Part shown: positions 1 through 3,458 of the stretch, one piece after another
Position numbering within the stretch: the first letter of the stretch is position 1
Layout: every line of letters begins with the position of its first letter
Sequence record: FJ483839.1
Length of the DNA: 3,458 nt
Source of the DNA: Escherichia phage BZ13
Reading direction: 5' to 3' (one strand)
Program-made: the position numbers and the translations under genes
Notes under the pieces: generated by a model
Databases searched by the model: none
Seen by the model: only the letters and a program-made list of their open reading frames with translations
Told to the model about the DNA's origin: nothing

Positions 1-128
1 GGGTGGGACCCCTTTCGGGGTCCTGCTCAACTTCCTGTCGAGCTAATGCCATTTTTTTAATGTCTTTAGCGAGACGCTACCATGCCGTTAGGTTTAGATG
101 ACGGTATATTCCATATACCGGAGGATCT
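1..128 (+). promoter_or_regulatory. 5' untranslated leader of the ssRNA phage genome (replication and translation-control region)
   Basis: Window starts GGGTGGGACCCCTTTCGGGGTCC..., which matches my recollection of the conserved 5' end of MS2/GA-type phage RNAs. No convincing gene starts before the maturation ATG at 129. A CTTCCT element at 31-36 could pair with the maturation gene Shine-Dalgarno. Confidence 0.85.
5..24 (+). promoter_or_regulatory. 5'-terminal stem-loop
   Basis: Seen directly: GGACCCC (6-12) is the exact reverse complement of GGGGTCC (17-23), with a 4-nt loop TTTC (13-16) and a possible G5-U24 wobble. A stable GC-rich hairpin at the extreme 5' end is characteristic of this phage family. 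Confidence 0.75.
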
Positions 129-1301
129 ATGTTTCCGAAGTCAAATATCGACAGAAATTACAAGGTTAAACTTATTTCTTACGACAAGAAGGGGAATCTT
201 GTTTCCGACGACTCTTTTGAGCAAGTCGAAAACTATCTCTTTCAAAACCGTTCGAATACGTATAAACCTGGATATATTCGTCGCGACTTTCGAAGACCAA
301 CTAACTTTTGGAACGGCTATCGCTGTTTCAATCAGCCAGTTGGTACCTTCACTCGGAAACTCTCTGATGGTGGGAGACAAGTTGCTGATTATGGCATTGT
401 GAACCCTAATAAGTTCACTGCCAACAGTCAGCACTTGGGGGACAACATGGTAATTTACCCTGGTCCCTTCTCTATAAATATTGATCAGCGTGCTTCTGTC
501 GAAGTCCTCAATAAGCTTTCACAGTCGAACCTCAATATTGGGGTTGCGATTGCTGAGGCTAAGATGACTGCTTCATTACTCGCTAAGCAATCTATAGCTC
601 TCATCAGAGCCTACACTGCTGCAAAGCGCGGTAATTGGCGAGAGGTGTTTTCTCAACTCCTCATCTCCGAACACCGTTTCAGAGCTCCTGCTAAGGATCT
701 CGGAGGTCGATGGCTCGAACTGCAGTACGGTTGGTTACCCCTTATGAGTGATTTGAAAGCTGCATATGATTTGCTCACGCAAACCAAACTGCCTGCTTTC
801 ATGCCCTTGAGGGTTACCCGCACCGTTGGCGGAACGCACAATTATAAAGTGCGCAACGTCGAATCTGCAGGGGATACTTGGTCCTATAGCGATCGTTTGT
901 CGGTGAATTACCGAATATGGTATTTCATTTCCGACCCGCGACTCGCATGGGCTAGTTCCCTTGGGCTTCTTAACCCTTTGGAAATCTACTGGGAAAAGAC
1001 GCCCTGGTCGTTCGTTGTTGACTGGTTCTTACCTGTCGGTAATCTTATAGAAGCCATGAGTAATCCTCTTGGCCTCGACATTATTTCCGGCACGAAGACC
1101 TGGCAACTTGAATCAAAACTTAACGCGACGCTTCCGGCTCCGGGTTGGTCTGGAACTGCAAAGTTGACTGCATATGCGAAAGCGTATGACAGATCGACTT
1201 TCTATTCCTTCCCCACCCCGTTGCCGTACGTGAAATCTCCACTTAGTGGGCTTCACCTAGCGAATGCGTTAGCCTTAATCAACCAACGCCTGAAAAGGTA
1301 A
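129..1301 (+). CDS. mat: Maturation (A) protein, 390 aa: pilus-binding and RNA-binding virion protein
   Basis: 390-aa ORF with GGAGG (120-124) upstream of the ATG at 129. The translation has blocks I recognise from the MS2 A protein: RGNWR, GRWLELQ(Y/F)[29 protein letters not shown], and a C-terminal ALALI-QRL. Position (first gene) and length fit the family. Confidence 0.93.
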
Positions 1302-1317
1302 TTACGGAGTTAGCCAT

Positions 1318-1710
1318 ATGGCAACTTTACGCAGTTTCGTACTCGTCGATAATGGCGGTACGGGGAATGTTACTGTCGTTCCTGTTAGCAATGCCAACGG
1401 CGTCGCTGAGTGGCTTTCTAATAACTCACGCAGTCAAGCTTATCGCGTGACTGCCAGTTATCGTGCGTCAGGCGCGGACAAGCGCAAATACACCATTAAA
1501 CTTGAAGTACCGAAAATCGTTACTCAAGTTGTAAATGGAGTTGAGCTGCCTGTTTCCGCATGGAAGGCTTACGCCTCTATCGACCTGACCATCCCTATCT
1601 TTGCTGCAACCGATGATGTGACCGTTATTTCCAAGTCACTCGCTGGCCTGTTCAAAGTTGGGGACCCTATCGCCGACGCTATCTCTTCTCAGAGTGGCTT
1701 CTACGCGTAA
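1318..1710 (+). CDS. cp: Coat (capsid) protein, 130 aa including the initiator Met
   Basis: ORF preceded by GGAG at 1306-1309, 8 nt before the ATG at 1318. Protein begins MATLRSFVLVDNGGTGNVTVVP... and contains NGVAEWLSNNSRSQAY and LTIPIFA, which matches my recollection of GA-type coat protein and is clearly homologous to MS2 coat (FVLVDNGGTG, NGVAEW, SRSQAY, ELTIPIF). Stop TAA at 1708-1710. Confidence 0.95.
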   Translation: MATLRSFVLVDNGGTGNVTVVPVSNANGVAEWLSNNSRSQAYRVTASYRASGADKRKYTIKLEVPKIVTQVVNGVELPVSAWKAYASIDLTIPIFAATDDVTVISKSLAGLFKVGDPIADAISSQSGFYA

Positions 1711-1901
1711 TGGGTCTGAAAGCAAAACATAAGGAAAACCTATGTTCCGATTCACAGAGATCGAAAAGACTCTATGTATGGATCGCACTCGCGATTGTGC
1801 TGTCCGATTTCACGTCTATCTTCAGTCATTGGATTTGGGGTCTTCTGATCCTCATTCTCCGGACTTTGATGGACTTGCCTACCTTCGTGATGAATGTTTA
1901 A
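1710..1901 (+). CDS. lys: Lysis protein (L-type single-gene lysis protein), 63 aa
   Basis: ORF in a third frame whose ATG (1710-1712) overlaps the coat stop TAA (1708-1710) as TAATG, and which runs 160 nt into the replicase gene. Basic N-terminus (K, H, R rich) followed by a hydrophobic stretch LYVWIALAIVLSDFTSIFSHWIWGLLILIL. The AIVLSDF segment resembles MS2 L (AIFLSKF) and carries the conserved Leu-Ser dipeptide (codons at 1800-1805). Confidence 0.85.
   Translation: MGLKAKHKENLCSDSQRSKRLYVWIALAIVLSDFTSIFSHWIWGLLILILRTLMDLPTFVMNV
1726..1746 (+). promoter_or_regulatory. Coat-protein operator hairpin (translational operator of the replicase gene)
   Basis: Seen directly: AACAUA-A-GG-AAAA-CC-UAUGUU. 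Lower stem 1726-1731 pairs with 1741-1746, A1732 is unpaired (bulge), GG 1733-1734 pairs with CC 1739-1740, loop AAAA 1735-1738. The replicase ATG (1742-1744) lies in the 3' arm. Same architecture as the MS2 operator (ACAUG-A-GG-AUUA-CC-CAUGU). Confidence 0.9.
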
Positions 1902-3340
1902 CTAAACATCCCTCACTCGGAGACAGTAATTCGGACGCACGCCGTAAGGAATTGGCATATGCCAAACTTATGGATAGTGATCAAAGATGCAAAATCCAAA
2001 ACAGTAACGGATACGACTACTCTCATATCGAGAGTGGCGTACTGAGTGGTATACTCAAGACTGCTCAGGCCCTTGTGGCAAACTTGCTTACGGGTTTTGA
2101 ATCTCACTTCCTGAACGATTGTTCGTTCTCCAACGGAGCCTCACAAGGGTTCAAGTTGCGGGATGCAGCGCCGTTTAAGAAGATCGCTGGGCAAGCAACC
2201 GTTACAGCTCCTGCCTATGACATTGCCGTGGCCGCCGTTAAAACGTGCGCACCGTGGTATGCTTATATGCAGGAAACGTATGGCGATGAAACCAAATGGT
2301 TTCGTCGGGTGTACGGCAACGGTTTGTTTTCTGTTCCGAAGAACAATAAAATAGATCGGGCTGCCTGTAAGGAGCCTGATATGAATATGTACCTTCAGAA
2401 AGGGGCGGGATCTTTTATAAGAAAACGCCTTCGCTCCGTTGGTATAGATCTTAATGATCAAACGCGCAACCAGGAATTAGCCCGACTTGGCAGCATTGAT
2501 GGGTCGCTCGCTACTATTGATCTTAGTAGCGCTAGTGACTCCATCTCTGACCGTCTCGTCTGGGATTTACTTCCACCGCACGTCTATTCATACCTCGCTC
2601 GTATTCGCTCGTCTTTCACTATGATTGACGGGCGCTTACACAAGTGGGGTCTATTTTCTACCATGGGTAACGGCTTTACATTCGAACTCGAGTCCATGAT
2701 CTTTTGGGCCCTGAGTAAGAGCGTTATGCTGTCCATGGGTGTTACTGGCTCATTAGGCGTCTACGGTGACGATATAATCGTTCCTGTTGAATGTGCCCCG
2801 ACCCTCCTTAAGGTATTATCCGCTGTGAACTTTCTTCCGAATCAGAAGAAGACGTTTACGACGGGTTACTTTCGTGAGAGTTGCGGTGCTCATTTCTTTA
2901 AAGGCGCCGACATGAAACCTTTTTACTGCAAGCGGCCAATGGAAACCCTTCCCGATGTCATGTTGCTCTGCAACAGGATAAGGGGTTGGCAGACCGTTGG
3001 TGGAATGTCAGATCCGCGGCTCTTTCCGATTTGGAAGGAGTTTGCTGATATGATTCCGCCGAAGTTTAAGGGTGGATGTAACCTGGATCGCGATACTTAC
3101 CTCGTTTCACCTGATAAACCTGGTGTCACACTGGTTCGTATTGCTAAGGTACGCTCTGGTTTTAACCACGCGTTCCCGTACGGCTATGAAAACGGCCGTT
3201 ACGTCCATTGGCTACATATGGGATCGGGAGAAGTTCTCGAGACCATATCCTCCGCCAGGTTTAGGTGCAAACCTAACTCGGAATGGAGAACACAGATCCC
3301 TCTATTTCCTCAGGAATTAGAGGCCTGCGTTCTCTCCTGA
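1742..3340 (+). CDS. rep: RNA-directed RNA polymerase (replicase beta subunit), 532 aa
   Basis: Longest ORF, starting in the operator hairpin. Contains VPKNNKIDRAACKEPDMNMYLQKG, which matches my recollection of MS2 replicase, plus RdRp motifs: IDLSSASDSIS (motif A-like), STMGNGFTFELES (motif B-like), and YGDD at nt 2762-2773 (codons 341-344) as catalytic motif C. Ends with a tandem stop TGA-TAG (3338-3343). Confidence 0.96.
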   Translation: MFRFTEIEKTLCMDRTRDCAVRFHVYLQSLDLGSSDPHSPDFDGLAYLRDECLTKHPSLGDSNSDARRKELAYAKLMDSDQRCKIQNSNGYDYSHIESGVLSGILKTAQALVANLLTGFESHFLNDCSFSNGASQGFKLRDAAPFKKIAGQATVTAPAYDIAVAAVKTCAPWYAYMQETYGDETKWFRRVYGNGLFSVPKNNKIDRAACKEPDMNMYLQKGAGSFIRKRLRSVGIDLNDQTRNQELARLGSIDGSLATIDLSSASDSISDRLVWDLLPPHVYSYLARIRSSFTMIDGRLHKWGLFSTMGNGFTFELESMIFWALSKSVMLSMGVTGSLGVYGDDIIVPVECAPTLLKVLSAVNFLPNQKKTFTTGYFRESCGAHFFKGADMKPFYCKRPMETLPDVMLLCNRIRGWQTVGGMSDPRLFPIWKEFADMIPPKFKGGCNLDRDTYLVSPDKPGVTLVRIAKVRSGFNHAFPYGYENGRYVHWLHMGSGEVLETISSARFRCKPNSEWRTQIPLFPQELEACVLS

Positions 3341-3458
3341 TAGTATCAGGACCTCCCCGGACGGGGTGGGTGTGACCGAAAGGCCACTATGGAGGTGAAC
3401 CCTCCACCGCCCAAAAGGCGGTTCTCGGTGACTAGTTTGCTTGGCTAGTCACCACCCA
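3341..3458 (+). promoter_or_regulatory. 3' untranslated region with replicase-recognition structures and 3'-terminal CCCA
   Basis: No ORF after the replicase stop. GC-rich, self-complementary segments are visible (CCCCGGACGGGG at 3355-3366; GTGACCGAAAGGCCAC at 3372-3387 with a GAAA loop). The window ends ...CACCACCCA, as expected for this phage family. Confidence 0.85.
3429..3451 (+). promoter_or_regulatory. 3'-terminal stem-loop immediately before the terminal ACCACCCA
   Basis: Seen directly: TGACTAG (3429-3435) is the reverse complement of CTAGTCA (3445-3451), with a 9-nt loop TTTGCTTGG (3436-3444). Confidence 0.7.

Follow-up and report, generated by a model that had tools for sequence, protein, structure and literature searches.

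The F-specific RNA coliphages of groups I and II are placed in two Emesvirus species, Emesvirus zinderi (group I; MS2, fr and the JS-like phages) and Emesvirus japonicum (group II; GA/BZ13 type), with GA (X03869/NC_001426) serving as the group II prototype. The maturation gene of these phages is controlled by a cloverleaf structure that is conserved from MS2 to KU1 and consists of a 5' hairpin, a helix between the Shine-Dalgarno (SD) sequence and the upstream complementary sequence (UCS), and three arms, W, S and E (PMC4615214; Groeneveld 1995 reviewed there). The JS strains DL52 and DL54 have been reported as the first natural levivirus recombinants (PMC3499819). The sequence analysed here, referred to as the window, is the whole 3,458-nucleotide (nt) record FJ483839.1 of Escherichia phage BZ13, strain DL20, which was obtained from a clam in Narragansett Bay (PMC3499819). 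This record is a mosaic of groups I and II, in which a noncoding leader of MS2/JS type is joined to a genome body of GA type. The leader anomaly is present in the deposited sequence, and it is probably a laboratory artefact, that is, a chimera produced by reverse transcription-PCR (RT-PCR), cloning or assembly, rather than a property of the phage.

The group I leader and its junction with the group II body

Leader positions were scored as informative when two group I leaders agreed, six group II leaders agreed and the two groups differed. Up to nt 78, all 35 such positions of the window have the group I base, and from nt 85 onwards the group II base is present throughout, which places the crossover within the hexamer ACCATG at nt 79-84. 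The leader contains the following features, given in window coordinates:

1-78, plus strand: leader segment of group I (MS2/JS type), with the group I base at 35 of 35 informative sites and 24-43% identity to nine group II leaders
1-28, plus strand: 5'-terminal hairpin with a stem of 12 base pairs (bp; 1-12/17-28) and the loop UUUC, from the predicted fold and the inverted repeat; its complement is the minus-strand 3' end
31-35, plus strand: UCS CUUCC, which can pair with the maturation SD sequence and pairs with 120-124 in the 135-nt fold
36-76, plus strand: MS2-type W arm of the cloverleaf, having a U7 run in its loop, from predicted folds and alignment
79-84, plus strand: crossover interval, hexamer ACCATG common to group I and group II leaders; last group I site at nt 78, first group II site at nt 85
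82-120, plus strand: group II-derived region of the S and E arms, with two competing predicted hairpins (82-90/99-107 and 102-109/113-120)
120-125, plus strand: SD sequence GGAGGA of the maturation gene, assigned from the sequence; GA has an annotated ribosome-binding site at the equivalent position

Over nt 1-84, the window was 100% identical to DL52 (JQ966307), a JS-like member of the MS2-like group I from the same laboratory. Identity to MS2 was 97.6%, the sole difference being 2 nt in a T-run, and identity to fr, M12 and others was 94-97%. An initial sequence-only reading, made without database searches, had likened the first ~80 nt to the MS2 leader, and the alignments bear this out. The U7 run (nt 52-58), located in the apical loop of the W arm, was shared by just one of the aligned group I leaders, that of DL52; the loop contained U5 in MS2, DL1, M12 and fr, and UUAUUU in FrSaffron. 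The run may be a natural marker of the JS lineage or a peculiarity of a single cloned fragment. When U7 was considered as a natural marker of the JS lineage, the leader match in IMG/VR proved to be plain MS2 with U5, and the leader of a distant Emesvirus-like contig was unrelated.

At the junction, the leader end ...GAGACGCUACCAUG (also given as ...UUAGCGAGACGCUACCAUG) is joined to CCGUUAGGUUU / CCGUUAGGUUUAGAUGACGG, so that the window has the junction-spanning 21-mer GAGACGCTACCATGCCGTTAG and 30-mer TTAGCGAGACGCTACCATGCCGTTAGGTTT. A group II leader, by contrast, begins with GGGUAGCGCCCCUUUCGGGGCGC / GGGUAGCGCCCCUUUCGGGGCGCUGC and runs to ...UCUUUUCACCAUGCCG. The minus-strand 3' end corresponding to an MS2-type leader is ...GGGGUCCCACCC(A).

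In a megablast search of a phage collection, nt 79-3458 were 94.7% identical to GA, 94.3% identical to DL10 and ~85% identical to KU1 and T72, and the alignments to all four began at window nt 79-82. Over nt 85-3458, identity was 94.7% to GA and 84% to KU1. The closest bodies (~95-96% nt identity over nt 85-3458) were those of the assemblies ERR2217812, which was the closest, SRR30876066, SRR17509909 and SRR9703302. A second breakpoint was looked for in bins of 100 nt across the body and none was found, identity to the GA clade being uniform at 94-96%. The sequence-only reading had proposed to check for a breakpoint between leader and maturation gene, and this proved the right place to look.

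Independent group II genomes were gathered from public assemblies (Logan contigs) by way of the protein cluster to which the maturation protein belongs. Six contigs from unrelated runs had a leader of 100-138 nt (SRR30876066, ERR2217812, SRR17509909, ERR13717228, SRR9703302 and SRR24706721). The leader 5' of ACCAUG was of group II type in nine of nine cases, comprising KU1, GA, DL10 and these six assemblies, four of which have bodies 95-96% identical to the window. Over nt 1-78, the leaders of these sister genomes were only 30-43% identical to that of the window. The junction 21-mer was not found in IMG/VR or JGI metagenome contigs, nor in the six Logan contigs with group II leaders. When IMG/VR and the JGI metagenomes were scanned under protein guidance for additional leaders of group II, the yield was limited to GA itself, one contig truncated at its 5' end and one contig starting with a sequence-independent single-primer amplification (SISPA) primer.

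The 5' ends of several public sequences showed peculiarities of their own. Two public contigs begin with non-viral library sequence, namely Nextera sequence (CAGATGTGTATAAGAGACAG; nt 1-20 of one contig) and a random-amplification primer (GTTTCCCAGTCACGATA; nt 1-17 of the other). In the GA record X03869, nt 1-35 (GGTGGTTAGGAATTTAGGGGGGGTTCCCTCACCC) are unlike KU1 and the six independent group II assemblies (GGGTAGCGCCCCTTTCGGGGCGCTGCTTTCATCC), and the conserved 5' hairpin is not formed; the 5' end of this 1986 reference is probably erroneous in places. T72 (FJ483838) and DL10 (FJ483837), the other two group II records of the laboratory that deposited DL20, are devoid of the 5' end although titled 'complete genome': T72 begins with ATGCCGTTAGG, corresponding to window nt 82 and thus inside the crossover interval, and DL10 begins ~54 nt into the leader. 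Both record starts look primer-defined. The independent T72-like assembly SRR12978838, with 96% identity to T72, has exactly the same start, ACCATGCCG. The agreement may be due to chance, or to a drop in coverage or a stop of reverse transcriptase at the base of the structured leader; in the latter cases, template switching would be likely at this spot too.

Predicted structure of the hybrid leader

The cloverleaf was the minimum-energy structure predicted by ViennaRNA for MS2, DL52, KU1 and ERR2217812. In the window, the 5' hairpin, the UCS and the W arm are of MS2 type and intact, and the E arm and the SD sequence are of GA type. The homologous 5' hairpin of group II has a covarying stem, GCGCCCC/GGGGCGC. 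The crossover cuts the helix at the base of the S arm, which in the window reads CUACC/GAUGA, with two mismatches and one wobble in five pairs. Among the other group II sequences, eight of ten had five Watson-Crick pairs out of five at this position (UCACC/GGUGA), and GA and DL10 had one mismatch each. KU1 shows a compensatory double change (UCAUC/GAUGA).

The chimeric leader was predicted to fold with -50.9 kcal/mol (z = -4.3) and had a centroid that differed from the minimum-energy structure. For the leader of ERR2217812, the corresponding values were -64.5 kcal/mol and z = -8.0, with a centroid equal to the minimum, so that the chimeric leader is 13.6 kcal/mol less stable. The UCS-SD helix of the window formed in a context of 135 nt, and its probability was 0.01 or less when at least 20 downstream nt were added. 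Forcing this helix in the window cost 1.8-6.1 kcal/mol at all four lengths tested. In MS2 the cost was 0 at four of four lengths, and in ERR2217812 it was 0 at three of four (range 0-2.6 kcal/mol when taken together with KU1); for KU1, two lengths gave 0 and the other two gave 0.1 and 2.6. The crossover is therefore predicted to weaken the pairing that masks the ribosome site of the maturation gene. All of these structures are predicted, and fluctuation was likewise seen in a control whose leader had been 'restored'; the folds were weighed as supporting rather than decisive.

Origin of the leader

We infer that the MS2-type leader is probably not the phage's own and was probably added in a laboratory in which group I and group II strains were sequenced side by side. 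Reverse transcriptase or PCR could have switched templates on a mixed template, in which case an MS2-type 5' primer used together with a reverse primer for group II would select exclusively for chimeras; alternatively, a 5' fragment may have been misassigned. A laboratory origin is favoured because every independent group II genome carries its own leader type, because the donor sequence is identical to DL52, a strain handled alongside DL20, because the breakpoint coincides with the start of the T72 sequence from the same laboratory and because the hybrid cloverleaf looks unoptimised. A literature search, which did not cover the methods of Friedman et al. 2009, yielded no mention of a chimeric DL20 leader. 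Several points speak against an artefact. The depositing laboratory reports that its sequences are consensus sequences from three clones (2012 paper, PMC3499819), and for its other strains it argues against contamination. Identity to DL52, even at 100%, is weak evidence when taken alone, because the group I leader is so conserved, and the comparison rests on only about nine independent group II leaders. A junction with 6 nt of microhomology, situated between structural arms, also fits copy-choice by a phage replicase. The bay that yielded DL20 also yielded DL54, a group I strain of the JS-like kind (PMC3499819), which makes a natural co-infection plausible. In addition, the MS2-type CUUCC is still able to pair with the GA-type GGAGG, and the helix forms in the short (135-nt) fold.

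Several of these observations also speak for DL20 being a viable natural recombinant, which we regard as possible but doubtful. A GA-like and a JS/MS2-like phage would have co-infected an F+ E. coli cell, and the group II phage would have gained the group I 5' hairpin, UCS and W arm by a template switch of the replicase at ACCAUG. The breakpoint is clean, lies in the longest string common to both leaders and separates structural modules; the leaders of the two groups have one cloverleaf architecture in common (PMC4615214), which makes a module swap conceivable, and both termini keep the GGG.../...CCCA needed by the replicase. However, none of the nine other group II leaders is chimeric, including those of relatives with 95-96% identical bodies, and the junction was absent from the two public contig collections searched (IMG/VR and JGI metagenomes). 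The broken base helix of the S arm, and a masking helix that lay outside the predicted minimum at every length in the forced-pairing comparison, also speak against a natural recombinant, as does the identity of the donor leader to that of a strain handled in the same laboratory. Finally, recombination software was run by the authors on a set that included DL20, and they named the JS strains as the first natural levivirus recombinants with DL20 unmentioned (PMC3499819).

It is very improbable that the MS2-type leader is the normal leader of a GA sublineage, acquired by shared ancestry or convergence. The loop of the 5' hairpin and part of the upstream sequence are indeed conserved between the groups, as in CCCCUUUCGGGG and in CUUCCU of KU1. 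Yet identity falls from 100% (group I) to the inter-group level of ~50% within 6 nt, the body remains of GA type at 94-96% throughout, and sister genomes that are 95-96% identical have leaders only 30-43% identical over nt 1-78. A match at 84 positions out of 84 to a phage with 42-62% protein identity cannot come from vertical descent, and the pattern of informative sites effectively refutes this explanation. An origin as chromosomal, prophage or plasmid DNA, or as a designed construct, has a negligible probability; its sole support is that the sequence is presented as DNA. The window had already been taken in the sequence-only reading to be neither chromosomal nor prophage DNA and to have no host context, and in line with this, and as befits an RNA phage, no match was obtained in 5,426 complete E. 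coli genomes. Moreover, the whole window is made up of four Fiersviridae genes with authentic RNA-phage termini, free of vector or flanking sequence, and its maturation protein exactly matches a protein on an NCBI phage record of equal length.

Genome layout and comparison with known phages

Judged by its letters and their matches, the window represents, as cDNA, the entire plus-strand genome of an F-specific group II single-stranded RNA coliphage, Emesvirus japonicum (GA/BZ13 type). Its 3,458 nt, given in PMC3499819 as the shortest length of a group II genome, are nearly filled by four plus-strand open reading frames (ORFs) in Emesvirus order and with the sizes found in GA:

129-1301, plus strand: maturation (A) protein gene; 390 amino acids (aa), PF03863 (E = 5e-62), 98.5% aa identity to GA, exact match to ACT66725.1
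1318-1710, plus strand: coat protein gene; 130 aa, PF01819 (E = 6e-38), 96.9% aa identity to GA and 61.5% to MS2
1710-1901, plus strand: lysis protein gene; 63 aa, PF11125 (E = 3e-7), 95.2% aa identity to GA
1725-1745, plus strand: coat-protein operator hairpin containing the replicase start codon, AAACAUAAGGAAAACCUAUGU; Rfam RF02359 at 18.1 bits (E = 0.5), below the gathering score
1742-3340, plus strand: replicase beta-subunit gene; 532 aa, PF03431 (E = 7e-220), 97.7% aa identity to GA, YGDD at nt 2762-2773
3341-3458, plus strand: group II-type 3' untranslated region (UTR), 96.6% identical to GA; 9-bp terminal hairpin at 3427-3453 (inverted repeat), ACCACCCA at 3451-3458

The gene order and sizes recognised in the sequence-only reading were reproduced, as were the coordinates it stated and its assignment of the coat protein to group II. 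All four proteins matched Fiersviridae Pfam families with scores exceeding the curated cut-offs. The lysis ATG overlaps the coat stop codon (TAATG), and the 3' part of the lysis gene overlaps the replicase gene. The low RF02359 score is expected for the GA variant of the operator hairpin; the bin 1701-1800 was 99% identical to GA, in which a coat-binding stem-loop is annotated at the equivalent position. An ORF of 106 codons (82-402, plus strand), which starts at the ATG of the junction and is out of frame with the maturation gene, was rejected as a conserved gene, other group II genomes having 28-106 open codons at this place. Identity to the KU1/T72 clade followed a sharply mosaic pattern: the blocks 1301-1500, 1801-2000, 2101-2200 and 2301-2400 were 93-100% identical even to this clade, compared with 70-85% in neighbouring blocks. 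The conserved blocks fall on the 5' part of the coat gene, the overlap of the lysis and replicase genes and portions of the replicase core; the pattern could stem from constraint by overlapping genes and RNA structure or from recombination within group II.

The genome begins with GGGUGG (1-6), within the terminal hairpin that the sequence-only reading had described, and ends with ...ACCACCCA; CCACCC (3452-3457) is the exact reverse complement of GGGTGG (1-6), as that reading had also noted. Its statement that both termini are present holds in a formal sense, and the 3' end is authentic group II sequence; the 5' 78-84 nt, of group I type, are probably not the phage's own, and the GGGUGG/CCACCC complementarity consequently derives from a leader that probably does not belong to this phage. 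By homology with GA-like phages, the maturation protein would be translated only from nascent RNA, the 5' cloverleaf pairing the upstream sequence with the SD sequence, and the coat protein from an open central ribosome site. Lysis protein synthesis would start on the coat stop codon, coat dimers bound to the operator hairpin over the AUG would shut off replicase translation, and both strands would be initiated at a 3' ...CCC(A).

The gene order on a plus strand of ~3.4-3.6 kb and the 5' GGG and 3' CCCA termini with their hairpins are those of an Emesvirus. Identity to GA, protein lengths, 3' UTR and operator hairpin are those of E. japonicum, with only the leader type departing from it. The window does not belong to E. 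zinderi, since only the noncoding nt 1-84 matched and the proteins were 31-62% identical to those of MS2. The sequence-only reading had left open whether the window was a known GA-like isolate or a divergent one. It is the former: the genome is already deposited as FJ483839, BZ13 strain DL20, is neither a new nor a divergent isolate, and by itself adds nothing new; GA-like coliphages are among the best-understood types of virus. Among neighbouring protein accessions, ACT66717-20 belong to DL10 (FJ483837) and ACT66721-24 to T72 (FJ483838).

The remaining value lies in a warning concerning a reference record and in a modest chance of a first inter-genogroup recombinant. DL20 serves as a group II reference, for instance as the dominant GII strain in the mapping of wastewater reads (PMC6963950). 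With ~80 nt of group I sequence at its start, MS2-like reads or primers can be mis-assigned to DL20, and any study of terminal complementarity or of the structure of the 5' UTR that draws on the record will be misled. Should the junction be natural, DL20 would rank as the first recombinant between genogroups of the F-specific RNA coliphages and as one of the few documented instances of natural recombination between two Emesvirus species. Replicase and maturation-gene control of GA type would then be able to cope with a hybrid cloverleaf and with a minus-strand 3' end of MS2 type, and the phage would constitute a natural experiment on the modularity of the 5' cloverleaf and the minus-strand initiation site.

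Compared with GA, the window has the same four genes (390, 130, 63 and 532 aa; proteins 95-98.5% identical), a lysis gene that likewise starts on the stop codon of coat, the same operator hairpin and a 3' UTR ending in ACCACCCA; it differs in its first 78 nt, which are unrelated (34% identity), and is 8 nt shorter. ERR2217812 shares 99% aa identity with it in coat and replicase. This assembly, SRR30876066, SRR17509909 and SRR9703302 have in common with the window an extra T in UAUAUUCCAUAUA, but they carry the group II leader ...GCGCCCCUUUCGGGGCGCUGCUUUCAUCCUUGAAGGCGCUAGGAAUGUUUUGCAUAAGCGACUCAUUUCUGCAGUCUUUUC 5' of ACCAUG instead of the MS2-type one. MS2 (V00642) and DL52 share with the window the 5' hairpin, the UCS and the W arm, and DL52 also the U7 loop run. 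In contrast, the aa identity to MS2 is 41.7% for the maturation protein, 61.5% for coat, 30.7% for lysis and 51.0% for replicase, and the 3' UTR of the window is of group II type.

The JS lineage to which DL52 belongs is itself very rare or under-sampled. The replicases of DL52 (nt 1763-3400) and DL54 were singletons at 90% identity in a collection of 5.8 billion protein clusters, in which clusters of MS2 and GA type have dozens of members, and the nearest contig to the JS-like replicases (Logan, 84% identity) had no leader. The idea that the GA-like 3'-terminal 23 nt of DL52 are primer-derived was dropped, since the 5' arm of the terminal hairpin covaries with the 3' arm. DL52 and DL54 resemble the window in being mosaic Emesvirus genomes from the same laboratory and the same set of environmental isolates. 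Their mosaic consists of a divergent stretch inside the replicase gene, lies within group I and occurs in two isolates, whereas that of DL20 is a group I/II swap of the noncoding leader, seen in a single record and undescribed by its authors.

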